55,860 nt of DNA, filler included, from Sphacelaria rigidula (GCA_964200075.2; 6 parts of 6 records of this genome joined end to end with filler, not necessarily neighbours in it), one strand, 5' to 3'. Counted from the whole stretch's first letter, positions 1,307 through 55,860 are shown. The notes: generated by a model from the sequence alone, not told the origin. Numbers and translations are program-made.

Positions 1307-1583
1307 CACAGAAAAAGAGACAGAGAGAGAGACAGACACAGACACAGACAGAGAGGCAGGCAGGCAGACAGACAGACAGACAGACAAAGGGAAGGACGCG
1401 GTGTGCGATGGGCAAGCCGAGAGAAAATGAGGCCCGCCTTGAACGAGGTCATCAATAAGGCATTTTGGTGCGCAATCTTTTGCGGTTACTGACGCTGTGT
1501 ATGATTTCGGCATTGATTGATGGTGAAGGGGCGTTGAAAACACGGGGGGTACCACTCGAAAACAACACAGAAAAGCATCGCAC

Positions 1584-1730
1584 CTGTTGCTTGGACGCGG
1601 AGTTGGTGATCAGCTTGACACGACTGGCGTACGTGAGGGCGGTCGCCGTTTCGTCTTGGTTGTAGTCCGCGGGCGAGATGTTGACGAACATGAGGGTCTT
1701 CGCGTTTCCACCGAGCGAGTCTTGCATCAG
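1584..1730 (-). CDS. Kinesin motor domain exon (end of motor; kinesin-14/KCBP-like)
   Basis: [49 protein letters not shown]; cag| acceptor and |gtg donor; 147 nt, phase 0-0. Confidence 0.95.
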
Positions 1731-2867
1731 CTGCAAAGTGGTAGAATACACCCAGCAGTAAGTATACACGTGCCCCACGGAGCCTCTGAGATTAGAAAAC
1801 CATTATCGTTTTTAGTCAAGCTCAGGAGCGGCGTGTGGCGGGAAAGACGAAAAAGAAAGCGTTTATCTAGAAATGCTTGTTTATTTGTTGGTCGTCTTTG
1901 AACGCGAACAACGTCGTGGAAAGGTCAAAATAGGGGCGTAGAAGCAACAGTGTTTTTTGTTGCCGCTGGAGGCGGTTCTCTGAGTACGACACCAAGGAAC
2001 AATGAACAACGTTCACTTTGACGTCTGGAAAATCGTATTTAATTGCCAACTCAACGTGCCAGCAAAAAACGTGAGGACATTCTGCTACCATCTGTGAACC
2101 GCAAACTGATTGCGGGCATTTGTTGTGTTCGGAAATCACGATTCTGGAGTATTTAAATGATAAAAGTCGTGTATGGATGAACCGGAAATAATCGCTGCTG
2201 CTGGCCTGCTGGCCGTATTTGCAAAAAAATGGTAATTGGGAAGAACAAGTATATAATCGGGCATTTATCGGATTTATTCGTCAGGTTCGTTGTGCTGGCA
2301 TGACCTAGCAGATGACCCTGACCTCGTGACGATGCCACAACATTAAACGATACGAAATATCTGAAAAGAACCAGTCCCTACCAGAACGCGATAAATGCGC
2401 GCCGCCACCTGGACGGAGGAGATAAGCTACACGAGAGGTCCCGGCCGTGCGCTTGACGTCGTAGGTATCACGTGCTGTATCTGCACTCTAGCCCCGGTGT
2501 ACCCCCGAGGTGTACGGCCGCAGGGTATGCGCGAACGGACGCTTGGAGCGGATCGCATTGCAACAACTCATGGACCAGCTAGGGCAGCGAACTCGAAGAT
2601 GGCAACAATTTCACAACTTTAAACTCCAACAGTCATATAACGTTCATATTCTAGAGAAATATCGTATATATACATTGAGTGTCGTACATTGACTGGTCCC
2701 CTACGAATGCAGCCGTGGTTAGTGGTCTGAAACCCCCCATCCCCCCTGAGAGATCCAAAAATTAGAAAGTGGGTTCATAGCTGTCGAATATATATATATA
2801 CATATATCGTGCACCCTTGTTATATATATACACATAGATGTATACATCCCACGCACAAGTTTTTCAC

Positions 2868-3080
2868 CTGAGTGAGTTTGTTGTTACGGTAAGGGACGAA
2901 CTTCTCCGCCGTCGATAGCGCAGAAATAACGTCCCCTAGAGCCGACAGAGATTTGTTGATACTCTGAGCCTCCTTGAGACGATCGGCTGTGGCGCCCGTC
3001 TTGTCAGCTCTCTCCGATCCCGCCAGATCGACCAGGGAAAGCTTGCCGTTGCTCGTTTTGCGTGTCGCGCTGCTCGTCAC
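2868..3080 (-). CDS. Kinesin motor domain exon (switch II)
   Basis: [13 protein letters not shown]...[15 protein letters not shown]...[14 protein letters not shown] boundaries; 213 nt, phase 0-0. Confidence 0.97.
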
Positions 3081-4541
3081 CTGTTGCGGGGTGACGGAAG
3101 AAACGTCGCCGTACGCGTACAGTCAAATGTTTTGCGCGAGTGATGCGCGGGTGGTTCACGAGTGATGCCTGAGTAAAGGTGAAGACACAGGGGAAGACAG
3201 GAGACGCGCCTACCCTTCCCGGGACAAGTGATCGGCTCCGCCTCGATCTATCTGCCTCGGGTCAGGTCGAATCGGCCTATCGCATCGTTACACTGCTCGA
3301 CGCATGTATTCCGAGACAATCGTCACTGCACAACCCGCGAAGAACGTAGCCCGTGGGCTGGAGGGACAGCCAACAGTAGATCTGCCTGCATACGGTCCCT
3401 CAACATGTGAGGTACTATTTTGCAACACATTGTGTTTCTTCGGGCGCAGAAACTTAGATTTCTCCGCCACAGAGCGACAATGTTCAAGAGGGGCGGGACC
3501 ACCCTCTCAACGGACCAAACGAGTGTTTTCGCTTATTACTGACGAAGGAATTTCGGCGGATTCTGTCCTCAAATATATATAAAACACTTTTTCGCCCGCT
3601 CTGCGGAAAAACGCAATGAAAAGGGCCTGTTTTTTTACGTCAAGCGAAAGATTGCCACAATTTCGGACCGTTTTTTCTGCTTCAAAGGGCAGAAAACGGC
3701 AAGAGTTGAGCATAGTTTCTCGCCATGTTTTAGGACAAACATCGCCTGGACGAGAGCGGAAATACGAAACTAATGCCTACGGTGACGGCCTCCACTAATT
3801 GCTAGTGGGTATATACTTTCCGCAAGTGCTTCCCCGATTCAAACCCCAACCTCGTGATACCAAGCATAAGGAGCGAACCCTATAATGATATTTGAACGTG
3901 GAATGAATTGATTTCACTGCAGAACATGGAAGTCGATCTACCGTCGACGGATCGGTACCCTTAGTCGAATATATAGCCGCGCTAAGTACACGCATACACA
4001 TGCATATATATACTTCGAAGAATATACATAATATACGAAGTATATTCATATAGGCCACAAGTAGGAAAAGGTGAAGGTGGAAATATCCACGCATGCATCA
4101 TGCCTTTTATCGAGTACTAGCTTGTCTTGTGTGCCTAGAAATGGGTTAAATGTGACGGAAGGATTTCCACGCTTTCTGACGCAAGTATCACACAACATTC
4201 CTGCGTTCCCCGATGATCTTAGGCAACGGATACGTTCGCGGTGCCGTATATTCCAAGGTTCGGACGGATAATGATTGACCTGAGAATAACTAGTTTGCAG
4301 TGCAATTGGTACGTCCCGCATGAATCGACCCTTAGGGGGCGATCGTCGGCGTTACACCCCAGGTAAGGGCAACCCAATCACGTGGGATAGCGCAAAAATT
4401 GTCTAGAGACTTTTTGGACGCGTGGTCAGCTTCCCCCCTTCCCTCCTCTTCCAGCAATCAAGCTTCGTATATGGTAGATTTAGTTATTCGAATCAGCGAT
4501 GGTTCGTCCGACTGTCGGTATATTCGATATCGTCACAGTAC

Positions 4542-4667
4542 CTCCAGTATGATGCCGAAGATGGAGTGCGACCGGCTCGACTCCGCGTTCATCTTTGTTC
4601 CGCTGACCTTGCGTTGGATGTTGCCTTGGGTGAACAATGTCGACAGCTCTTGAGCGCTGTCGGCTTC
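4542..4667 (-). CDS. Kinesin motor domain exon (switch I)
   Basis: EADSAQELSTLFTQGNIQRKVSGTKMNAESSRSHSIFGIILE with NxxSSRSH; 126 nt, phase 0-0; splices in frame to 3080. Confidence 0.96.
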
Positions 4668-4755
4668 CTGATTCAAGCGATTAGTGCGGGCGCTCGAATG
4701 AGACTCGCGATAGTACGGTCGTGCATATATATATATATATAATATGTATACGTAC

Positions 4756-4845
4756 TGTGACGGTTTGAGAGACAACCAACTAGACTACTGACGAGTCAGC
4801 GCTGACTGATCAGTAGTCTAGTTGGTAGTCTCTTAAACCGTCACA
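4756..4845. repeat. 90-bp near-perfect inverted repeat (hairpin) in kinesin intron
   Basis: Arms tgtgacggtttgagagacaaccaactagactactgacgagtcagc and gctgactgatcagtagtctagttggtagtctcttaaaccgtcaca: 45 bp each, 4 mismatches, no spacer. Confidence 0.92.
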
Positions 4846-9228: not shown

Positions 9229-9328
9229 NNNNNNNNNNNNNNNNNNNNNNNNNNNNNNNNNNNNNNNNNNNNTTAATTAATTAANNNNNNNNNNNNNNNN
9301 NNNNNNNNNNNNNNNNNNNNNNNNNNNN
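9229..9328. other. Artificial contig-joining spacer
   Basis: 44 N + TTAATTAATTAA (stops in all six frames) + 44 N, exactly 100 bp. Confidence 0.98.
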
Positions 9329-18555: not shown

Positions 18556-18655
18556 NNNNNNNNNNNNNNNNNNNNNNNNNNNNNNNNNNNNNNNNNNNNT
18601 TAATTAATTAANNNNNNNNNNNNNNNNNNNNNNNNNNNNNNNNNNNNNNNNNNNN
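18556..18655. other. Artificial contig-joining spacer
   Basis: Identical 100-bp N/TTAATTAATTAA/N linker. Confidence 0.98.
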
Positions 18656-27882: not shown

Positions 27883-27982
27883 NNNNNNNNNNNNNNNNNN
27901 NNNNNNNNNNNNNNNNNNNNNNNNNNTTAATTAATTAANNNNNNNNNNNNNNNNNNNNNNNNNNNNNNNNNNNNNNNNNNNN
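27883..27982. other. Artificial contig-joining spacer
   Basis: Identical 100-bp linker. Confidence 0.98.
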
Positions 27983-29158
27983 CAATCAGGCAGGAGAAAT
28001 CGTGAATTTGGTGATTTTGAGTCGTGATGATTTGTCCTAACCGTGATATCTTTCGAGGCTTTCATATGGGCTTTGGTATGGACCGTAGGTTGATAAGGTA
28101 CAGGGATTACCAGACATGGCGTTAAATCAACGAGAAGAAATTCGGCCGATTTGCCTTGATTAGACGATTAATACAATATGCGGGTCACACCCCTACTCGT
28201 CTGCGCATGAGATTGCTTCGAGAGCTCCAACGCTTGCCTAGGCTGAACCAGCTCGTAAAAGTATCTCAGACTCGAGATTCCCGGTACGGAGTGTTTTACG
28301 GCCAATTATGTCGAGAATCTTGAGCTTGAAATTCCTTCGATGAGAGCGTTTTGCTGCTCAGCGACCGAGAAACGCCTCGTGCCAACGCTTGCATCGAAGC
28401 TCGTTGCACGTGAATGAATGATTCCTTGCGAAAGTGAATCTCGAATATCATGCATCCCACCTGGGAGGAAACTCTTGGCCGTTCAGGGAGACACGTCCAA
28501 AATAAACCTTTTTGTTGTCTGCTGATTTGTATAGTTCGCGTAGGCGGTGCACCCTCTGCGTCGTTTGCTTGACAATCACTCGGATGAAGCGAAGCCATTT
28601 TTGAATCACTTGAATACAGTGTGATGATTTCAAAGTCGGAATATGAGCGACAATTGCTTGGAGTTGCTTGCAAGGACATCATCACCTCGGTTTAGCACAC
28701 TTGAGTTCGCCCATACTTGACGTGAGTACAGGTCAAGTACTTGCTCGGGTCAAGTATTACTGCCGATCATGACTACTACTTGAAGGCCGTATGGTCAGCC
28801 TACACCCCAATCTTGCACAGAGACGATTCAGATGTACCGGATAATGACTCCGTGAGTATTCGTGAAAAGCAAACGAGTTCCCCCGGACAAAACCACTCAA
28901 CATCACGTGAGGTGGTTGTGGTATCAGCACCAACCCCACGTGCGCTTTGGGTACACCATTGGAAAACTTTGAGGTATGCGTCTCCTCTGGAGCAGGTACG
29001 ATACCAGGTAGCTTGATGTACTTGATTTTTCGCACTGGATGCTGCCTCGAAAGCAGACCGGAAAGAAAGCGACCGCCCTTTGGTGTCAACAGGAGCAACC
29101 TGAACAATCAAACCTCGGATACACCATTTTCCTCGTAGCTCCAAATGGATCAAGCTTG

Positions 29159-29375
29159 TGTAATGCGTGAGAGGACCGCGTGCTTGGAGGACCGCATTGG
29201 AATCTGAACATCCCTATGGTTAGGGTTAGGGTTAGTGTTAGTGTTGGTGTTGGTGCTATGGTCAGGGGCGTGGTACCTCCAGGGACTGACCCGATTGGTT
29301 TTGAAAAACGTCGATCCTGAGGTGGTTTGAACTACGGCGCGGTCCTCTGAGCACGCGGCCCTCTCACGCATTACA
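29159..29375. mobile_element. MITE with ~36-bp TIRs and internal telomere-like repeats
   Basis: tgtaatgcgtgagaggaccgcgtgct...agcacgcggccctctcacgcattaca; internal ttagggttagggttagtg. Confidence 0.88.
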
Positions 29376-29538
29376 CTCGAGCCCATCGTACCCCTTGTCA
29401 CTCGCGAAAACGGATGCCCGTAGCTACACAGCACACATGAAACAACCTCAAGCCTATCGTCATCGACCGGTGCTTGCCCCTGACCGATATGTCTCATTTC
29501 TTGCTCCCGTTTGCCGCTGACAGAACCACGCGGATAGC

Positions 29539-29620
29539 ATGTGGTCGGCCAGAAATCTGGGCTTGTGCCTTTTGGGAATCACCTTCTGCTTGACCCTGTC
29601 GGCGAGTCCCGTGATCGGAG
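29539..29620 (+). CDS. Exon 1 (signal peptide) of secreted Lys/Asp/Tyr/Thr-Pro block protein
   Basis: MWSARNLGLCLLGITFCLTLSASPVIG; phase-1 donor ggag|gtgagg; upstream acceptor cag| at 29521-29523 suggests a 5' UTR intron. Confidence 0.72.
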
Positions 29621-30009
29621 GTGAGGTTTGGGTTGATTGTTGCGTTCTAACTGATCTCGAAGGGATCCAGCCGTGGTCACGTGATACGCGTGCTCGAGAC
29701 AACAAGTGAGGGCGCGGCGTTGCTGTAACGCGGGCGTGTCGCGTCTGTGGGTCTAGTGTTATCTTGCTTTGATGAACGTACAGGGAGGGTACTCGGTAGC
29801 GGTCCAAGACCACAGGAAAATGTGGGCGAAACAACCTGTAAGTAAGTACTGTCTACCCGGTATTGTGGAGAAGCTGGCTCACCTGTCTTCCTAGGTGCCA
29901 CGAGAAGGATTTTCGGCCAAGAGCATGAACAAGACACACTCGACCTCCAGATGCAGTGATAATTTCGGCATGGAGGAACGTCAACACAGCGATGTGCTTC
30001 TGTTATTTA

Positions 30010-30168
30010 TTCAATGGACATCCCCGTGGTTGAGGTTTGTGTTGGGGCTGGGGTCAGTGGTGTGGTTCCTACAGGGCGACTTGTCCGATTCATTGTGAAA
30101 AACGTCCATCCTGGGGTGTTTTTTAATACGATGCGGTCCTCTAAGCACGCGGCCCTTCCACGCATTAC
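30010..30168. mobile_element. Partial copy of the telomere-like MITE (intron 1)
   Basis: Ends gcggtcctctaagcacgcggcccttccacgcattaca. Confidence 0.75.
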
Positions 30169-30618
30169 AGCGTCGTCCGGGCAGGCGTTATTCGCGTCGA
30201 GCACAGGGCATCATTCTGCAGTCGGAAGTCCGCGGTGGTCATCATGTCTGCGTGTCTCGAAACATGTATGTGCTGTCTTGCTCCAATTCCTGCAAACAAA
30301 ACCGAGCACTTTTGAACGCGCTGTACAACAACCAAGCAGTCTTTCCCTTTTCCGTGAGACTCAAATCAAGCATACTCAAGTTGAGGAGTTTTCTGGTAGT
30401 AGGCCAGACCCACGTGAGTTGCTGTTACCACACCAGATTCGGGAAGTTGCCCAGGTCCTCCCCTACCGAGGCTCTCGCTGCCCCCACCCTCCCCACTCCG
30501 GGGGCACGTGTTCCTTGCAAGCAGGTACATGCTGGTCGTAGGCGCCGTCGCTGTATTCATTGAAATGTACGTCCAGTGTTTTCGATGCCGCCCTCATGTT
30601 CTCCAACACGCCGGTCAG

Positions 30619-30714
30619 AGTCATCCGTTACGACCCTTGCGCGCTTGGACACCGCGGAGTATGATGAGGGAGCTCTCGCCTTGACGGATGCCTTGACTCC
30701 CGCATCGACGCATG
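30619..30714 (+). CDS. Exon 2 (acidic propeptide-like segment) of the secreted protein
   Basis: tcag| acceptor and catg|gtaggt donor; 96 nt, phase 1-1; (E)SSVTTLARLDTAEYDEGALALTDALTPASTH. Confidence 0.55.
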
Positions 30715-30894
30715 GTAGGTACATCCCGTCGGTGGGGAAGGCTGAGTGCTGAAAAGTAACACAAGCGCCCATGTTCCATCTCCTGAAGTGTAGATGCTGG
30801 ACTTTAGCGATTCGTTGCACCCTCTGAAATGTAGATGTTGGACTTGAGCAATTTTCACGTGCTGTACAACGTAGGCTGGTTGGTCTCGGCACTC

Positions 30895-31249
30895 TGTGGG
30901 GGTTGGGGTTAGTGTCGGAGACTTGCTCGAGCGATTTTGAAGAACATGGGTCCTCGCGTTTTTTAATTCCGATGCGGTCGGAAACGCAGGCGGTTCTCCC
31001 TCGCATTACACTCTTTCGGGCGATTTCCCCCGCCCATGTTTGTATTTCTGCAATGCGTGGGAGGACCACGGGCTTAGGAGAGAGCACCGGAGCTTGGACA
31101 TCCTTATGGTTGGGCTTGAGGATGGGGTTGGGGTGACGGCCAGGGGCGTGGTCCCTGCAGACGGGCTGGCCCGATTGTTCAACGTCCATCCTGGGGTGTT
31201 TTGAACTATGGTACGGTCCTCTGAGTACGCGGTCCTCCCACGCGTCACA
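30895..31249. mobile_element. Two diverged copies of the telomere-like MITE (intron 2)
   Basis: Partial copy ending ...cgcattaca at ~31010 and a full-length diverged copy at 31049-31249. Confidence 0.72.
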
Positions 31250-31759
31250 ATCGTCAGAGCGAGTCCGTTCCATGCGCATCGCGTGAAAATCACTGTACGT
31301 ACACCAGTGTGAAAATACCTAGGTTTCTACTAATTATGCCAGCGCGGTTTTACAAAATAGCGACCCAAATACTATTTTCACAAGAAACGAGTTCTTCGAA
31401 ACCCGTGCTAGCATAATGAGTGAAGCGTAAAGATAGCTGCCCGTGGTGCTCGACCTTTTTCGTCCGCGGCAACAGTTACTGCGAAGCGCGCGTGCACAAT
31501 TCGTATTGGAAAGCTCAGTACGATGCATCTGCAAAATCGAGGAATAAATCGCGTCGAATTGACCGAAAAGTGAAGAACCACGACAGAACACCGGGCGATG
31601 TGCCCATTGCACCACCAATGAATATACACTTGAGGTGGTGCGTACAGCAGTAATTTTCGGGGTAGACCCCCATTCGAAGATCCCGAGTGTTTTTCTTCAC
31701 GATGGTGACCTTAACGTTGCTGCACCGTTGTTCCTTGGATACGACCGCAAATCCTCCAG

Positions 31760-32293
31760 ACGACTTGAGCAGAAGTCTCGGCGACAAGAAGCGTAAGCCA
31801 GTGCGCGGAAAGGGAAAAAAATCGAGGAAGAAGAGGAAGGGGAGAAAGAAGGGGAGTAAGAGAAAGGGAAAGAAGAAGGGGAAGAAGGGAAATAAGAAGA
31901 AGGTGAAGAAGAGCAAGAAGAGCAAGAAGGGCAGAAAGACCAAGAGAAGCAAAAAGACCAAAAAGACCAAAAAGAGCAAGAAGCACAAGAGGGACAATGA
32001 CAGCAGTGACAGCAGCGACAGCAGCGACGACAACAAGGGAAGGAGAAGGAAGAGGAGCAAGAGGAGCAACAAGAAAAACAAGAGAGACAATGATAGGAAT
32101 GACAGCAGCGACAGCAGTGACGATAACAAGGGGAGGAGGAGACGGAAGAACAGCAGGAGGAATCGGTCCGATTCCTTCGACGACGACGGCCACGACTTCG
32201 ACGACGACCGCTTCGACTTCGACGACGACCGCTTCGACTTCGATGACGACCGTCTCTACTACGACGACGACTACTACTACTTCTACGACGACG
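31760..32293 (+). CDS. Exon 3: RSL motif, Lys/Arg-rich block, DSSDSSDD linkers, DDDRFDF/DDDYYY block
   Basis: ctccag| acceptor and gacg|gtgaga donor; 534 nt, phase 1-1; open frame with codon-level repeats. Confidence 0.85.
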
Positions 32294-33269
32294 GTGAGAT
32301 GCTTGTGAATACAGGGTGACTGAATGCTGTAAGGCCGCGTCGTTGAGGTGGATTGTCTGGACTGCCGCATGCTGGAAGTGGGAATCGGATCTCGGATTTT
32401 TATGAGTTGACCGCATTTCTACTGTGGTCTGATGTTTTTCGTGAGGTGTCATGGGCGTACATGCGCTGGACATAAATACGCTCATTCTCGTGGACATCGC
32501 CGCTTGCGTGTTCCTTGAATCGTCGCTACGTGCCAGGGCATCGAATCTTGTTGGCTTGTTCACGGTTTTTGGAGGCTTGGTTTACTTTTCGCTCCTCGAA
32601 TAGCAATTGTTGTCACCAAATGTCTTGGTGATCATGCATTGCCTCACTTGAGAGGTGTACAGCCTACTGCTGCGATTCGCTCGGCTGCGACGATTCGAAA
32701 GCGACCTTGGAAGAACAACTTAACAACTAGAGAAAAGCAAGATGTGGTATTGAGTGATCTTCCGCGGACCTTCACACCCGGAGATTTGTCCAGACAACTC
32801 TTATCGACATAGCGGAGCCGATCAAATCGGACAAGTGAGCTAGACGCCCCTCCGAGAAGTAGTGCATGGTGCCCAAGGAACGTGGTGGTGGTGTCTCGTA
32901 CAGCCCTCCGAGGCAAAGGAGAAAATTCCACAATTAAGTATCCAAACATGGCAAGTTGATGCAACCAAGACTTGACCTCGTAGCACCTTGGAATTCGGAC
33001 AGAACTTACATCGTTCATGACACTCAGCGGTGGTTGCTCCATAGAATCATCACGGGGTGGTGTGAAAATACATGGTTTTGGCAAAAAACAGTGCGCATAG
33101 GATCACGATACCATCGGCATGTGGCAAAACACACACTACACACTCTGCATGCAGCGAGGTGTCTTCGGCTTCATGAACGTGCGGCCATGCCAATCAAACC
33201 TTCAACTCGATAGTCACTGCATGGCTCGATATATCTTGCTTCGGGAATCTCACGTCTTTGCGTTTACAG

Positions 33270-33562
33270 GCAAGGTACGAGGACCTGTCAGGAGAACTAT
33301 GGCGCCCACGGCGACGCCCACAGCAGCGCCGACGACGGCCGCACCCACTACAGCCGCGCCTACGACGGCAGCTCCGACGACGGCCGCACCCACTACGGCC
33401 GCCCCGACGACGGCCGCGCCTACTACGGCAGCCCCGACGACCGCTGCACCCACTACGGCAGCCCCGACGACCGCTGCACCTACTACGACAGCCCCGACGA
33501 CCGCTGCACCAACTACGGCAGCCCCGACGACCGCTGCACCAACTACGGCAGCCCCGGTGTAA
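33270..33562 (+). CDS. Exon 4: mucin-like (PTTAA)15 tail, stop at 33560-33562
   Basis: tttacag| acceptor in phase 1 joins exon 3 in frame (G-KVRGPVRRTMAPTATPTAA(PTTAA)n PV*); variation between repeat units is mostly synonymous. Confidence 0.85.
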
Positions 33563-35575
33563 CATGTAGCAATTTTCTGGACCCGGTTGTTGTATACAGT
33601 TGCAGAGTCTTCGTTTGGTACGTAGTTGAGCCAACCGGCCGGTTTCATATGTATGTGACAAGATCCACGATACGTCCCATCGGCGTGAGTGAGTGATGGC
33701 TACCTCGTGGGAACTTGGTTCGGACGAGTCGTCCCGCGCGAGTACCCGTAACTTATTTACGTGGCATCTTCAGTCTTTCAGGGTGGACATCATCGCTTTC
33801 GTCGTGTACTGTAATTTTTGCGGACAAGTTGTTGGTTCGTTTAGTCCCCGTTGACGTATGGGATGTTAGTGGTGACACGGTAAGGGTGCACATTTCAGGT
33901 CAAGATTTGTTTGAACTTCCACACTGGGCCTAGATGTTTTTCATCGAGTAGCTGCCCGAGTGAAGAGTCCCGGAACGTTTTCGTGCATCTCAGCTTGTAT
34001 CGTGGCACACTCATGTCATCGTCTTCGGCTTCACAGGGGGACCATGAGCAGGTGTAGCAGCGTTTCATCGTGGCGAGACTCGTGAGCATTTCGGCCCGCC
34101 GATTCGTGCCAACGAACGCTCCACCACTTTCCCCATTTCGAGAGCCGGCTGCCTGAGCCCTGCTGTGTTGGTGGAGGATGTACACATGGCATGATGGCGC
34201 ACCCGCTGATGGAGTGGATGTAATTCGTAGTAAAATACGTGTACTGTAGTCAGATGGCTTGAACCAAACGATTGTTGGAATGCTGCGATGTCGACAACGC
34301 TATATCCTCATGTGTGGATATCGGTGCAAAAGAAATAGTATAGTACAACTTTTGCCGGTTCATTGAGGTCAGTAAACATGTAACATTTTTCATTTACTGT
34401 GTTGTAGGTAGCGCGCTACTAGGGATAATAGAGTAGGCGACGTGCCGCCATCTTTGTCGCGGTAAGATTTGTAGCAAAATGCACACGACACGATTTTTTT
34501 GTAACAGCTGACAAGACCAACACGTCGGCAGCAAGTTGAACCAGAAGCTCCCAACTCACCTTGTTCTCTCCTTTGAGAGGAGACCGTGCGTTGTTATACA
34601 TCTTGGCCAAATAAGGGCCGGTGATTACCATCGACGTTTTTTTTTTACGATGTTGCAGGACGCGAGTGAGCTTCACGGCTTCCGTGCATCCTGTGTGCGT
34701 CCATGTTGTGAGATGGCAAGTTCGATTACCGAGAAAGCCCCCACACGACACCATTCTTACAATGGCGATCATGTCTCAACTGCCCTCCACGGACACCCCT
34801 GCTGAAGTACACGAGGCCATAGAAGAGTCGAGATGTATCGCGTCGATCACCTACGGCTTTGATGCCTACAGGCGAAAGCGAGAAAAATGAAGTATGAAAA
34901 CGAAGTTAGGCTGTACACATATGGTTGCTGTACATGTCGCGGGACGCTTCCCGGACATGAATTTGATCAGCTTTATGGCCTTCAGGTTGACGGACCCCAC
35001 GATACTCACTGTCCGTTGTCCAAACGGTCGCAGGGGATATCCTCGACACTGACCGATGTTGACCTCGCGCCTGACAAACTGGGGAGACGTTGATACCGTT
35101 GAAGCCAGGCGAAACTTGGATTGTCGTTGCTTCTCCGCATCGACAAGTCGGTTGCTTGTTGTTCTTTTGTACTTGACACGTTTGTGACGTCTGAATGAAC
35201 GTCACGAACGTTTAATGTGACGTCTGATTGAACGTCACAGACGTCACACGCTTAGCGTGTACTATAATGTGACGTGACCTACCGTATTGAAAATAATGAA
35301 AATTGTGACGAGACGTGACGTATTTTGTTTCGAACTTCGAACTTGTTTTTTTTGGGGGGTATAGCTATTCCCAAGTCGCGGCTTGGACATACTCATGTCC
35401 AAAGCTAGCCGCGATTTGTGTATACTGCCCGCGTTCGTCCCATGTGCCTTGCATGGACACCACAACACCGGAAATACACTCAAAGTCCGCAGTCATCATT
35501 TAACCCATCGCGCGGTGCAAACGACCTCTCAGCGGACGAGAAACGCGCCTGCTGCACATGGTACAAATAAATATA

Positions 35576-35655
35576 ACAGCCGATCACGGAAATTGAGGAT
35601 TGAGCTTTGTATTGAGCACGAGAACCCGGAGGATCAAAAACTTCGTATCCACCAA
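35576..35655 (+). mobile_element. Terminus of the foldback family seen at 859-1306
   Basis: acagccgatcacggaaattgaggattgagctttgtattgagcacgagaacccggaggatcaaaaacttcgtatc. Confidence 0.8.
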
Positions 35656-35769
35656 GGGTCTGTCGAGAGATTTGTTTTCGGACACAGAGCCCCCCCTCCC
35701 GGAAAGCAATTTCTCGAAAATCGCCATGGTTTTTTACCTTTATTTTTGTGATTCTTTTCCGGGAATTTT

Positions 35770-36195
35770 CTGATTTTGTTTTGTTAAAAATGTTGAAATA
35801 AATTGATTAACGAACACTGGCAAAAACCGATACGTCTGGCGGGCTTTGCGAGGTTCGTATATTTGCTTCTTCTGCTCCTTGACCGCCCTGTCTCGATTAC
35901 CTCGAAGGGCGGTAACCCTTACACACATCTGTTTACAATAATACACGAGCGCGAGGTAGCGACAGTCTATAGCCAGCCAAAGTAGCAACATTATATCACG
36001 CCTCGTCATATTTAAACGGACAGCTAGTTGTAGGTAGTCGAGGTACCCGACCCGAAACATCATCCCCTAAATATAATCGCGGCAGGTGATGAGCTTGGAC
36101 GGGCGATGTGTCCGTCATCTCAGCGGTCTCCATGCCAAGAATCCCTGTACACGGCAGCTGACCGCATTCGCCAACGCCTCGACAATAAACTAGGG
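35770..36195. repeat. Dispersed repeat, homologous to 39520-39905
   Basis: Shared blocks aaaaaccga...ggttcgtatatttgcttct and gtgtccg.catctca..gtctccatgccaag.at...tgtac...aacgcctcgacaat.aactaggg. Confidence 0.75.
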
Positions 36196-36579
36196 AGAAC
36201 AGCGGGCTGGGTGTCCCCCCCTTGCCCCCACACATCTAGACTCTTGGGTTGGCGTCGAGTGGAAACGGCGCTGTTAAACAAGCCACCAAAACCAAGACAA
36301 ATGTACAAACTTTCACCGTACAGAGACCGGGGACCACTACTAGACGAATAAAGTCCCGGACCGACAGACACAACACTCAAAAACCTAAACAACCCAATGG
36401 TTTCCCCCCTGAAACAGAAGAAATGAATATAGATATGATGTACCAAAGCTGGTCGTTTTCCCCCTATCTTTACCACACTAGACTACTTTCTTTTCCTCAA
36501 CCGCTTTGTTTCCCCCCCCTTTCTCATATTTTCCTTCCTCACTTTCTCTACATTCCTACCTTTTCCTTCTTTTTTTTAT

Positions 36580-37120
36580 AACCCACCATAACACAGCCCA
36601 GATACTGACATGAAATAAAGAAGCTAACCCTCCTTTTCCTTCAACCTACCACAATACAGCCCGGACATGGACATGAAATAAAGAACTTACCTTTTTGTTT
36701 TCTTTCACCTCCTCCTGTTGTTGTAATGCGTGAGAGGACCGCGTGCTTAGAAGAGGACCGCGCCGTAGTTAAAAACACTTCAGGGTCGACGTTTTTCAAA
36801 ACCAATCGGATCAGTCCCTGGAGGTACCACGGCCCTGACCATAACCCTAACCCTAACACTAACCCTAACCCTAACCGTAGGGGTGTTCAAATTCCGATGC
36901 GGTCCTCTAAGCACGCGGTCCTCTCACGCATTACACCACCATACCACAGCCCGGACAAATACATGAAATAGATAAGCTAACTGCCCTTTCCTTCAAACTG
37001 CCATAATTCAACCCGGACATAGACATGAAATAAATGAACTGACCCTCCTTTATTTAACCCACGACAGCACAACCCGGACATGACATGAAATAGAGGAGCT
37101 GACCCTCCTTTTTGTTTAAC
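36580..37120. repeat. ~60-65-bp tandem repeat interrupted by a MITE
   Basis: Units ...cacagcccggaca(tg)acatgaaataaagaagctaaccctcctttt. Confidence 0.8.
36722..36935. mobile_element. Telomere-like MITE, opposite orientation to the 29159 copy
   Basis: TIRs tgtaatgcgtgagaggaccgcgtgcttaga...; internal (ccctaa)n. Confidence 0.88.
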
Positions 37121-37208
37121 CCTTAGACCGCGAGGTTAGTCTTCTGTTGAATCGGCATCAATTTCAAGGGGAAAAAGTATGCATGATCCAGAAAGACTAC
37201 TCTCGCGG

Positions 37209-37308
37209 NNNNNNNNNNNNNNNNNNNNNNNNNNNNNNNNNNNNNNNNNNNNTTAATTAATTAANNNNNNNNNNNNNNNNNNNNNNNNNNNNNNNNNNNN
37301 NNNNNNNN
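37209..37308. other. Artificial contig-joining spacer
   Basis: Identical 100-bp linker. Confidence 0.98.
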
Positions 37309-46534: not shown

Positions 46535-46634
46535 NNNNNNNNNNNNNNNNNNNNNNNNNNNNNNNNNNNNNNNNNNNNTTAATTAATTAANNNNNNNNNN
46601 NNNNNNNNNNNNNNNNNNNNNNNNNNNNNNNNNN
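46535..46634. other. Artificial contig-joining spacer
   Basis: Identical 100-bp linker. Confidence 0.98.
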
Positions 46635-48784: not shown

Positions 48785-50460
48785 CTGCGGTAGTCGGGGA
48801 CGTTCGCGGCGGTAGTCATGGTGCGATATCCAAACGCACGCTGCGTACACTCGGCACGTTCAAGACTGTAAGATCCAGTACGCCGCAGACCGCACGTACG
48901 TGCAGTCGCGGCACGATACACTACAAACTGCACAGCAAAATATGAGGCGTAATAAGTAGGTGATCGACATCCACACCACCGTCTGTGTTATGACTCTCAC
49001 AACTATGTGCCTCTAATGCACTCCCTGTCCCTTCCGCCGTAGATTAGGCGTTTTGAGTTGTGAGAAAGGGATAATCCTGAACCCCAAAAGTGTAGTGTCT
49101 ACCTCAGTCTATCTACCAGCGGGGGCGTCGCCGTCGAAGGGTCAACACATTATTTTCGATCGAAGAGGTGCTGCGGAAAGGGAAAAGTTCGCTCTGGCAG
49201 GTCACGATAGGTCGCCGTTTGTGCCCACGTCATCATTATGAGTTCCTTATCTTGGAATGACGACCCACGACCTGTACGGATATAAAAATCATTATCACCG
49301 GATCGTATTATCTCTTTTTTTCCGCCGCAGACGTTTCTATCGAAAAGTAAGTGATGTGCGAAGACACCCCCTGAGAGCTATATGATAAGTGGAGCGGGAA
49401 AATGGGCTACATTCCCCTCGGTCGGTGTATCCCTGTATTGCTTGTATCGCGTTTTGTGAGTTTTCATCTAGTTTTTTTTTGGTTTTGTTCGATCAAACCC
49501 GGTACCTTATTATAGGTAGCTAGCCTGTAACCACGGAAGGCGTCCGCGTCAGATGCGCAGCACGAAAATATCGCTCAGATATCGGAACGGTTTCTATTGC
49601 GAAGACAACAACCATAATGTGTAACCTGAGATATTGCATCGGCAAACACCCCTGCCCACGGAATGGGTGAGATATGGCTGACGCCGTGCTGTTTTTCGAC
49701 GACCTCTTTGAATATATTTTGTGTAGGGCACGGCTCGTTTCCCCCTCCAACGAGACAGCTGGTAGTATGTTGGGTCCAGGTAGGCCAGACGCGCATTTTT
49801 TCGAGATCGAAACTAACCGCCGCATCGTACAGTAGGTAGGTGGTGATACTGTAGGAATATTATAGCACCCCCGTACATTTTTGCGGAGACAGGGCACGCG
49901 TGAGCTCCCGTATAAGACCCCCATTTGAACCGCCCGAAGATGTTGGCGGTAGATTCCAGCGATGTTAAATTTGACGGGTGTGCATGTCATTGTGAAATTG
50001 GCGCCAAAAGTCGCCGCAGTGAACAAGGTAGCATACACTCTTGGACAGCCAAATTCTGGCCATCCCTGGGCACACAGCACAGCTTTTCGGTTCAAGCTAC
50101 TAACGTTATGATTGATACAGGTACTGTCTGTTGCGAACAGAGGAGAACGCACTACAATGCACAGTACTACGCAACCCACGTAAATGCACTCTCCTCTGTG
50201 GTACATGGCCAGCCTAAGCAGAGTATGGCGTGCATGCTGCACTCTACAGCAACCCATGGGTAAATAACAACTGGTGAGGGAAGCAATATATCCAGATCCA
50301 GGCTAAAATGATCCCAAAGATCTCAGATCCCGGAGAACGGTTTTCATTGACTGCTGGAATTTTGGTCGCTGTACACCATGGGCTATGACTCTTGTATTCT
50401 GTCTTAGAGGTATTCTCTCGAAGCTATACCAAGTGTTCCGGTAAAATAGCAGGTGTCTAG

Positions 50461-53500: not shown

Positions 53501-55062
53501 CTTACGCTGTAAAGCGTAGTATTCGGCGGGTGTCGGAGCTGTCATCGCGGGAATATAACTCCCTCAAAGTATATTTTGTTCCTCTTTATTTTTACTGTTG
53601 TGATCTCCGTCTTGTCCGCCAGACGGTAAAGATAGGTAAAGCTTGAAGCTTAGTCCAGCCCGTCACTGGAATCTAATGGTTGTGACCAGATTGAAACATG
53701 CTTCCATTTTTTCACTGTTCAATCGAGAAAGTAGTGCAATACATGTACTACATGCAGATGTCGTTATCCAAGTGTATGTGTGGCTTGTTTCAAGTGAACT
53801 CAGGAGCCCATATTAATTTTATTTTAGGTCTGGATTTAGCGTCCAGCTAATCGCTCGAATCTGCAGGGAATCGTCAGCTCTGGTTGCTCGCCGTTCGTAT
53901 GCAGTTTGGTCTACCAGCTCACCAGATTTTTTTCTTCCCCTCTCCTCGCCTCTCCCCCCTCCCCCCTCCTCGGGAGATGTGAACTCTTGACCTCCAAGGT
54001 GATTCATCGGGGTCTCGATATAATTTTCGAAGTGATGATGTCGATTCATCATGTGATCCACCCTGGTGGTCGGAGGGTTAAGTAGACTGCTGAGGTTAAA
54101 CGTCTGGATGAGATTCAGAGAAACTTTGTACCATGTAGTTGGTTCGGAAACACTCAACAGTCCTGTGCTGTGTATATCTAGCGACCAAGCAAAATTAATC
54201 TATACGGCAGCACGTGAGAGAACTTGGTATCTTCATGCGTCGCCTGCAATGCGCAGAGGCGCAATTCTGAAACAACGACGCCGTTTGAGGAATCTGTAGC
54301 AATTGCGACTAAGGCTGATGAACTCGGTAACACATGGAGAGCTCAAGTTTGATTACCCATGTGCCAACGGGTCTCTCTTGGTTTCACCTACTTGGAACAG
54401 CACTAAAAGTGGTTTTATACCGTAACATGTGCAATTCCTCTCCTGCCCTCCCCTCCCTCTCTCCCCCGGCGTTTTTTGGGCAGAATACGCTCTATTGGGC
54501 AACGTTTCCGACTTGCGTACCCGAAAACCCTGGGCTTTTTCGCTCTGAATTCGCTCGCTAATGGGCGCCCGAGTCTAAGGCATCATCCACGATCTTGATT
54601 GAGCAGATGGGACGATGGGACATATCTGGGCGGTCAAAACTTCGGGCGTTTTTCTACAAATACACAGCTATGGGAAACTGAGAGGGATAGAAAGGGGGAG
54701 GGGTGGTACACAGTGTAAACGGCCTTTCCCTCCCCTCATCGCTATCCTCTGTAGTGCCGTTCAGTATCCATAACCAGCTTTCCGATTTGCGTGCATCATC
54801 AACACCACTTTTTGCATGCCGAGAGCGAAATAACGCTATTAGATATGAAGGGGTATATCCACTGGACGGGACTTTTTGCGTACCTGCTTGCCCTTTTCCC
54901 CTGCCATCACCCAGTCGGCATCTTGTATCATCATCCGTCGCCCGAGATATCACTTTTGAGTTTTTTATTTTATTTTATCGGTTACCTAGAAACCCAAGAA
55001 TATCGAACATGACCCTCCGTCCCCATCGCCTGTTCACACCACCGCCTACTCCAAATTTTCAG

Positions 55063-55453
55063 GCTCCAAGTACGTCCCGCCGCACCTAAGGGGTGGTGGG
55101 GGCGAACCGGGACCTGGTCCGGCTGTCGTTGACCCGCGCGGACCTCCTCCTAGAGAGGGACCTGCACCCACTGGAGCGTGGGCCCCGCGACCAGGCCGCG
55201 GAGGCTACGATCAAGGAGGCGGCGGTGGTTTCCCGGCAGGAGGGGGAGGATACGGGGGAGGATCAGGGTACCCTCAACAAGGGAGTGGGGGGGGATATGG
55301 TGGCGGGGGGGGTTACCAGGGTGGTGGGGGGTATGGTGGCGGGGGAGGGGGTGGGTACCAGGGGAGGGGAGGGGGATTCAGCGGTGGAGGGGGGTACCAG
55401 GGGGGGGGGGGAACCGGATACGGCGGTGGGGGTGGTAGTCATGGCGGCCGAAA
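55063..55453 (+). CDS. N-terminal low-complexity exon of a probable DDX3/Ded1-like DEAD-box helicase
   Basis: ttttcag| acceptor and cgaaa|gtgagt donor. The frame is not in the ORF track: SKYVPPHLRGGGG...RPGRGGYDQGGGGGF...(GGGGYQ)n...SHGGR. Y(I/V)PPHLR is the Ded1/DDX3 N-terminal motif. Confidence 0.65.
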
Positions 55454-55860
55454 GTGAGTGCCATGTACGACGTGTTTTTCCGAGGGGGATATTGGCCGCT
55501 GTGTGTGGAGGCGTTGATCAAGTGTGTGGTCGTTTACTGTGCATGACGCAGTGTAACAGCGTACCGTGAAAAGCTGAGATATCGGACTTGTGGCAAGTAT
55601 TGCAAGATACCGTATAACTTCATACAGTCGTGTTATTCTGATCCGTGCAAATGTCCATCTTGATCTTGATTGCCGGAATCTTCACCCGTCTTGCAGAGTT
55701 TTGTGCCTTCTTCTTGTGTTTGGTGAATTCCAAGGGCCCGACACATCAATGATTCGTCTGGAAATTACTTGGTTTCAGTGTATTTGATTCGAATCGTACG
55801 AATCAATACCTAGGCTTTGTTTTCAGCGTTGCAAGCCAAGTGCACGCAGCCCAGACACGT

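Follow-up and report, generated by a model that had tools for sequence, protein, structure and literature searches.

The closest described systems to the gene considered here are the silica-associated proteins of diatoms and the arabinogalactan proteins (AGPs). The gene lies on the plus strand of a 55,860-nt stretch of DNA from a probable brown alga (the window, meaning that whole stretch), and it encodes a secreted-looking protein in which basic, Ser/Asp-rich and aromatic blocks precede a Pro/Thr/Ala tail. Several other protein classes share part of this design. Classical and Lys-rich AGPs end in a hydrophobic C-terminal signal for a glycosylphosphatidylinositol (GPI) anchor, and the Lys-rich AGPs of plants carry a short Lys-rich insert. 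The DSS-repeat proteins of the dentin phosphophoryn type are acidic biomineral proteins. The cements of sandcastle worms and mussel feet form by complex coacervation, with opposite charges on separate proteins and Tyr converted to 3,4-dihydroxyphenylalanine (DOPA). Nucleolar proteins of the Nopp140/nucleolin type alternate acidic-Ser and basic blocks and have neither a signal peptide nor a Pro/Thr/Ala tail.

For two of these systems sequence screens have been published. Silaffin-like proteins are defined loosely (Scheffel et al. 2011) by an endoplasmic reticulum (ER) signal peptide plus a minimum of 18% Ser and 10% Lys per 100 amino acids (aa), as given in the available parts of PMC3478156 and PMC3820600. 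A stricter screen, in the available part of PMC5501833, uses repeated KXXK (X = S or G) spaced 1–6, pentalysine clusters, RXL and frequent PT repeats. AGP-like proteins are recognized by a signal peptide, at least three glycomodules (AP, PA, SP, PS, TP, PT) separated by at most 10 aa, and a high partial content of the residues Pro, Ala, Ser and Thr (PAST) (PMC5266747). AGP epitopes and chimeric AGP-like core proteins have been reported from brown algae (PMC8307928, available in part, citing Hervé et al. 2016).

The gene is real, spliced and transcribed, and it is an orphan of restricted lineage. With moderate confidence it is read here as encoding an extracellular-matrix polyampholyte glycoprotein of a probable brown alga, silaffin-like by convergence. 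Little is known of the proteins that give structure to the brown-algal matrix, in which the polyanions alginate and sulfated fucans dominate. The protein is a rare concrete and testable candidate for this matrix.

Gene structure, splicing and transcription

The coding sequence consists of four exons (Table 1). All three introns begin with GT, end with AG and interrupt the frame in phase 1. Joined by coordinates, the exons give 82 + 96 + 534 + 293 = 1005 nt, or 334 codons and a TAA stop, and the four-exon, 334-aa model first proposed from the sequence proved exact in its coordinates, splice sites and arithmetic. Around the start codon, position -3 is A and position +4 is G, and 29524–29538 has no upstream ATG. 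The whole gene falls inside one piece of the window (27983–37208). In the spliced transcript the proposed frame alone is open from the ATG, which disposes of the possibility, raised with the model, that exon 3 is read in another frame. The other frames of exon 3 are open in genomic DNA, but they lack ATG-initiated continuity once spliced.

Contigs from sequencing runs X1, X2, X5 and X6 were compared with the stretch 29300–33900. Nine runs carry this stretch and none of them is recorded as RNA, the mark 'RNA?' on X1 and X2 being a guess. X1 and X2 belong to a single study and count as one independent source; X6 is a larger run from a third study. Contigs of X1 and of X2 show exact skips of 998, 1045 and 976 nt with GT..AG ends, and each of the two runs contains all three of the predicted joints (29620^30619, 30714^31760 and 32293^33270). 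For the middle joint, X2 has just a variant with G for A at 31760 (Asp60 to Gly), and X1 has both forms. By contrast, the DNA-like run X6 has none of the three joints, and its contigs cover the introns at ordinary depth. X5 also shows none of the three, yet it covers just 6 of 30 bins. The exact, canonical joints indicate that the X1 and X2 contigs stem from spliced RNA.

The word depth of joint-bearing contigs in X1 is 595–2467, versus 7–37 for intron-spanning contigs (37 for intron 1 and 7 for intron 2). Contig depth reflects expression poorly and was used only for this comparison of spliced with unspliced sequence at the locus, where the spliced form outweighs the unspliced one. Run X5, labelled organism B, contains identical or near-identical pieces at 31887–32057, 33497–33556 and 33665–33885, at a depth of 2–5. 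The pieces fall in exons 3 and 4 and in the 3' untranslated region (UTR), and could come from a close relative, a mislabelled sample or carry-over.

At the 5' end, one X2 contig diverges from the window just upstream of 29524 and continues into 27 foreign letters. Neither these 27 letters nor the last 16 of them occur in the window at up to three mismatches, apart from a lone 16-mer match at 48802 that is at chance level. Because the contig leaves the window right beside the AG at 29522–29523, an upstream 5'-UTR exon is likely, on the weak evidence of one contig, and the gene then probably has more than four exons. The four exons of the original prediction stand as the coding exons, and the total is likely higher. 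At the 3' end, contigs of X1 and X2 run to 33900 and further, which gives a 3' UTR of at least 338 nt.

Table 1. Positions of the gene's parts and of other features, counted from the first letter of the window
Feature	Position	Strand	Description
5'-UTR part of first coding exon	29524..29538	+	departure point of X2 contig; probable acceptor AG 29522-23
Coding exon 1	29539..29620	+	Met and signal-peptide-like segment, residues 1-27
Intron 1	29621..30618	+	998 nt, GT..AG, phase 1; contains a partial MITE copy
Coding exon 2	30619..30714	+	acidic non-repetitive pro-segment, residues 28-59
Intron 2	30715..31759	+	1045 nt, GT..AG, phase 1; contains a MITE copy
Coding exon 3	31760..32293	+	residues 60-237; DLSRSL, Lys/Arg block, DSS linker and basic run in alternation (twice), Asp/Phe/Tyr block
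Intron 3	32294..33269	+	976 nt, GT..AG, phase 1
Coding exon 4	33270..33562	+	residues 238-334 and TAA; short basic linker, 85-aa Pro/Thr/Ala tail
3' UTR	33563..33900 or beyond	+	X1/X2 contigs cover 33527-33900 and continue past it
MITE-like copy	29158-29376		5' flank of the gene
MITE-like copy	30035-30169		intron 1
MITE-like copy	31046-31253		intron 2
MITE-like copy	36722-36936	-	
Kinesin gene exons	1452-4784	-	
Kinesin, switch I	4533-4784	-	
Kinesin, switch II	2820-3122	-	
Kinesin, motor end	1452-1802	-	
Spacer	9229-9328		
Spacer	18556-18655		
Spacer	27883-27982		
Spacer	37209-37308		
Spacer	46535-46634		

Constraint, expressed variants and relatives

The tail encoded by exon 4 contains 15 repeat units in which non-consensus bases number 1, 0 and 38 at codon positions 1, 2 and 3. 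All but one of the 39 are thus third-position and synonymous. Because the repeat DNA has diverged while the peptide has been kept, selection acts on the protein; the tail frame is under protein-level constraint and is not a neutral microsatellite. Exon 3 contains an internal 93-nt duplication (81% identity) with 2, 5 and 11 differences at codon positions 1, 2 and 3, and a 21-nt tandem repeat present 5.6 times. Between the contigs and the window, 10 of the 12 exon-4 differences listed are synonymous, a further 65 standing outside these 12, and some of the differences may be effects of repeat register.

These observations bear on the view that the locus is a transcribed but functionless young gene in which expanded, microsatellite-like repeats are open by chance. 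An orphan built of tandem repeats in transposon-rich DNA invites such a view. However, an almost wholly synonymous divergence is unexpected for neutral repeats, splicing is correct at all three introns, and the depth of spliced contigs far exceeds that of unspliced ones. A functionless gene of this kind is very improbable.

A second expressed copy, allele or close paralogue differs from the window by R5K, C10G, T39A and D60G, and at 13 of 153 letters in 33527–33679, within the 3' UTR. With R5K and C10G it retains the positive n-region and the hydrophobic core of the N-terminus. No paralogue was found elsewhere in the window. Other contigs hint at length variants, with a loose end at 32187 in the DDDRFDF repeat and, for the Lys block, 181 nt skipped between 31852 and 32034, and one contig fuses other sequence to the Lys block at 31825.

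Searches for relatives returned nothing usable. None of the four exon translations reaches a curated cut-off in Pfam. For exon 3, a word-index search among proteins of 119–380 aa gave 4036 candidates with none at E <= 0.01, and phmmer against 1.84 billion representatives of all lengths gave none at E <= 0.001. The open reading frame (ORF) of exon 2, searched by word index against longer proteins, gave 70 candidates with none at E <= 10. An Atlas search gave no usable match, and none of 592 pattern matches in metagenome contigs was confirmed. These blanks are weak, since HMMER corrects for biased composition, exon 2 is just 32 aa long, and the queries were single exons. The window's own protein did not surface in the homology searches either, so the gene model is absent from the collections searched. 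Literature searches found no printed description of such a protein, although supplementary tables of silaffin-like screens or brown-algal genomes may list comparable ones.

Tandem repeats were masked ahead of gene prediction in the Phaeoexplorer work, according to the available part of its preprint (10.1101/2024.02.19.579948). Exons 3 and 4 are made of tandem repeats, and such masking may account for relatives missing from protein databases. The case illustrates how a gene built of repeats can escape annotation, as pipelines may mask it.

Block architecture of the encoded protein

The first 23 residues consist of a segment with one Arg, a hydrophobic core of 14–15 residues, and S-A-S ahead of Pro. 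The N-terminus is the sole hydrophobic stretch of the protein, as seen in 15-residue Kyte-Doolittle windows starting at residues 6–12. Judged by rule of thumb for n-, h- and c-regions, this is a classical signal-peptide layout, and the protein appears to be secreted. The signal peptide named in the original prediction is recovered at this level. Targeting to a plastid as a rule goes with an aromatic residue or Leu after the signal cleavage site; neither follows the predicted site here, and plastid targeting was rejected.

Past the predicted signal peptide, residues 24–334 contain only 7.7% VILMFWC, and Cys is confined to the signal peptide. The precursor is ~36 kDa (~34 kDa without the signal peptide), and the mature protein has a net charge of about +37 and a pI of about 10.2. 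An acidic pro-segment (residues 24–66, net charge -6) that ends in DLSRSL precedes a 71-aa basic block with 38 Lys (54%), 9 Arg and 9 Gly, in which KKSKKSKK and KKTKKTKKSKK lie. Two DSS linkers follow, with Arg/Lys runs between them, and then an Asp/Phe/Tyr block at residues 196–237. This last block consists of DDDRFDF and its variants followed by YYDDDYYYFYDD, and has 6 Tyr, 7 Phe and no Trp. All the motifs listed at the outset are present (DLSRSL, KKSKKSKK, KKTKKTKKSKK, the DSS linkers, DDDRFDF, YYDDDYYYFYDD and the PTTAA units). DDDRFDF occurs twice, with two variants, and the 15 tail units are 14 PTTAA and one PTTTA.

In order along the chain, the blocks carry charges of -6, +46, -6, +12, -5, +9, -18, +4 and 0. 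Charge segregation is 0.216, versus 0.082 +/- 0.014 in shuffled sequences (z 9.6), and none of 2000 shuffles reaches it. The loose KxxK motif, with K, R or T at most X positions, occurs 27 times in the whole protein where 6.5 +/- 2.2 are expected. Within the Lys block the enrichment is modest (25 versus 19.3 +/- 2.2, reached by 16 of 2000 shuffles). An AlphaFold2 model of exon 3 has a mean pLDDT of 51.5, a pTM of 0.16 and no secondary structure; it agrees with disorder, but as it was built from a single sequence it is weak evidence. The mature protein is a block polyampholyte and is probably intrinsically disordered.

The tail contains 34 AGP-type dipeptide modules in 85 aa (AP 16, PT 17, TP 1), with Pro spaced every 4–5 residues. 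PAST content is 98.8% in the tail and 41.3% in the whole protein. No PP dipeptide occurs in the protein, and its C-terminus is a PTTAA repeat followed by PV, which is not hydrophobic.

Comparison with known systems and rival readings

The protein has each of the sequence features by which PMC5266747 recognizes AGP-like proteins. With plant Lys-rich and brown-algal chimeric AGPs it shares the signal peptide, a domain rich in PAST, Pro residues that are non-contiguous and recur every 5 residues, Ala-Pro and Pro-Thr modules (GlycoIndex 0.40), and a basic subdomain beside the AGP-like domain. It differs from them in a basic region of ~130 aa with acidic interruptions, in a total PAST of 41%, and in that no homology was found. 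Its sequence allows it to be called a chimeric AGP-like protein, one whose charge-block domain is unusually large. Two related classes were rejected. The C-terminus has no hydrophobic tail, which rules out a GPI-anchored AGP, and the absence of PP together with a score of 20.4 bits for the tail on PF02095 (Extensin_1), against a cut-off of 105, rules out an extensin, a class marked by Ser-Pro(3-5) motifs.

The diatom proteins are those to which the original prediction likened this one. The protein passes the loose screen: it has the signal-peptide layout, and the composition thresholds are reached in 21 of 235 windows of 100 aa (maximum Ser 19, Lys 31–39), with Ser barely at the threshold. It fails the strict screen on KXXK, as a single K[SG][SG]K motif is present (KGSK at residue 90). 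At least 5 Lys occur in 70 windows of 14 aa, most of the Lys lying in KK doublets; pentalysine denotes five non-consecutive Lys within 12–14 residues, and the Lys density here makes that test little informative. RXL occurs twice, once in the signal peptide and once at residues 64–66 before the basic block, where 1.3 are expected; 792 of 2000 shuffles reach two, which puts the count at chance level. The proposed likeness to cingulins is not supported, since a single Asp/Phe/Tyr block follows three basic blocks and the spacers between basic blocks are DSS runs, not aromatic segments. Also shared are PT-type repeats and silacidin-like Ser/Asp stretches.

Set against the Thalassiosira pseudonana silaffin-like proteins, cingulins and silacidins as a whole, the shared features are the signal peptide, Lys/Ser-rich low complexity, dense Lys clusters, an RXL after the pro-segment, PT repeats, acidic Ser/Asp stretches and an aromatic-rich block. 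The differences are the lone strict motif in a 54%-Lys block made mostly of KK doublets, one Asp/Phe/Tyr block in place of repeated Tyr/Trp alternation, searches that found no sequence similarity, and the probable brown-algal host. The protein is therefore not classed as a silaffin or a cingulin, and would instead follow a similar design principle, that of a secreted disordered polycation with phosphorylatable acidic parts. Of the two origins initially suggested, a design shared among stramenopiles or convergence, shared descent is unsupported and convergence is the economical reading, because no homologue was found.

A mineral protein of silaffin/silacidin type, which would serve at the algal surface as a template or regulator for silica or a calcium mineral, by common design or convergence, is very doubtful. 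In its favour, besides the loose screen, are PT repeats like those of 14 diatom silaffin-like proteins (PMC5501833), DSS/Asp blocks that resemble silacidin composition (PMC3820600), and the reported deposition of silicon by the kelp Saccharina japonica at its wounds and sori (PMC3434887), all as given in the available parts of these sources. The last of these also qualifies the earlier description of the host as non-silicifying. Against it are the failed strict screen, a Lys content of the basic block (54%) far above the 10% floor of the loose screen, the lack of homology, and the absence of SIT and SIT-L transporters from Ectocarpus reported in the available part of PMC5100055. A fuller version is very improbable: that a highly transcribed, secreted brown-algal protein combining silaffin-like polylysine, silacidin/phosphophoryn-like and aromatic blocks directs mineral deposition, whether of the silicon of kelp wounds and sori or of a calcium phase. 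If true, it would open the first molecular way into how Phaeophyceae deal with silicon or biominerals, and the silaffin design principle would either be older than diatoms within the stramenopiles or have arisen twice.

Outside the algae, two classes share part of the block composition. DSSDSSDSSDD-type runs, which could be heavily phosphorylated, and Asp-rich stretches of a Ca2+-binding kind are held in common with phosphophoryn-type proteins. However, the DSS runs here are ~14 aa long inside a strongly basic protein from an unrelated kingdom, and the likeness is of composition only. With marine cement proteins the protein shares polybasic and polyacidic sequences (phospho-Ser in the cements), Tyr clusters and a proposed electrostatic condensation; unlike in those cements, both charges are on one chain.

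By analogy with these marine invertebrate cements, the protein could be a vesicle-stored adhesive or coacervate protein of spores, gametes, zygotes or rhizoids that condenses with Ca2+/Mg2+ and wall polyanions into a sticky phase and hardens via Tyr. The strong segregation of polycation, polyanion and aromatic blocks in one chain speaks for this, as do the signal-peptide layout and DSS runs that could carry phosphate. However, there is no DOPA-type or Gly/Tyr-rich context, the block has just 6 Tyr, and the stage and tissue of the runs are coded. An adhesive role is unlikely, and it is a special case of the favoured scaffold reading more than a true alternative to it.

The order of signal peptide, acidic pro-piece and cationic block also recalls a polyprotein precursor. 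The acidic pro-segment and the DSS spacers would neutralize the cationic blocks in transport, and cleavage at RSL and/or at dibasic sites would free polycationic peptides, for example for antimicrobial defence. R-S-L stands exactly between the pro-segment and the basic block, and the protein has 40 dibasic sites. However, RXL is no more frequent than chance, the basic blocks are nearly devoid of hydrophobic residues, unlike amphipathic antimicrobial peptides, and the constrained glycoprotein tail would have no role. A precursor of this kind is distinctly unlikely.

Ser/Asp clusters alternating with Lys/Arg clusters, and disorder, are shared with nucleolar proteins of the Nopp140/nucleolin type, and dense K/R tracts resemble nuclear localization signals. 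The protein might on this basis not be secreted at all, but be a nuclear, nucleolar or membrane-anchored Lys-rich, acidic-Ser protein whose N-terminal stretch is not cleaved. In contrast to the nucleolar type, it has both a signal-peptide layout and a Pro/Thr/Ala tail, and no search returned any similarity. The core of ~14–15 residues, the positive n-region and the small residues are the layout of a signal peptide and not of an anchor, the tail suits secretory glycoproteins, and no nuclear homologue was found. A non-secreted protein is very unlikely.

Under the favoured reading as a matrix glycoprotein, the ~36-kDa precursor would enter the secretory pathway, and the polycationic blocks would bind the polyanionic polysaccharides of the wall (alginate, sulfated fucans) electrostatically. 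The acidic blocks, whose DSS serines are possibly phosphorylated, would attach to Ca2+ or to basic blocks on molecules nearby, and such binding could make the protein self-associate or form a coacervate. Oxidative cross-linking may take place at the Tyr cluster. The tail, if O-glycosylated in the manner of an AGP or a mucin, would serve as a hydrated spacer. Candidate roles are an electrostatic cross-linker of the matrix, an adhesive, a core of the brown-algal AGP epitopes, and a partner for the reported silicon deposition.

Gene structure, splicing, transcription, the constraint on the tail, the composition and the charge segregation are established here; secretion, every modification, the binding partners and the location are inferred. 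Several points weigh against such a scaffold. Secretion is argued from the classical signal-peptide layout, and the case is built on DNA and contig sequence. The searches found no homologue from which a function could be drawn by comparison. That X1 and X2 are RNA is a guess, they share a single study, and their tissue and life stage are coded. Cleavage of the basic blocks by Golgi convertases at the dibasic sites is possible, so that an intact scaffold may not exist. Alternation of Lys/Arg blocks with acidic Ser blocks is also typical of nuclear and nucleolar proteins. Finally, the taxonomy is drawn from a kinesin exon in a different piece of the window, and both pieces are assumed to belong to the same genome.

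Identical spacers of 100 nt (44 N, then TTAATTAATTAA, then 44 N), recurring every ~9327 nt, divide the window into six pieces of ~9.2 kb. This regularity looks like artificial joining or masking, and features of different pieces may not adjoin. A dispersed element of ~220 nt with terminal inverted repeats of ~38 nt, resembling a miniature inverted-repeat transposable element (MITE), occurs in the gene's 5' flank, in introns 1 and 2, and once more in the same piece. In X6, the DNA-like run, it has word depths as high as ~364,000, versus 30–100 for unique sequence, so the element is extremely abundant in the genome. The copy in the 5' flank contains a run of GTTAGG/GTTAGT hexamers at 29219–29255.

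The Pfam scan of the window covered 113 of the 133 ORFs of at least 105 aa, the other 20 being those that overlap the gene region. The only match among the 113 is a kinesin motor fragment. The best named matches of the kinesin exon at 2823–3122 (minus strand) are from Hapterophycus canaliculatus (89% identity) and Ectocarpus sp. (80%), followed by Chrysoparadoxa (78%), Discosporangium (77%), and then oomycetes and pelagophytes; none is at 100%. On this basis, and provided that the six pieces share one genome, the window is stramenopile DNA, most probably of a brown alga or of a close sister group. At the end of the window, an ORF at 54990–55457 (plus strand) encodes 155 aa rich in Gly and Tyr, with GGGY-type runs. 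It has no Pfam match; by resemblance it may belong to a gene of RNA-binding or helicase type, as its low-complexity N-terminal part.

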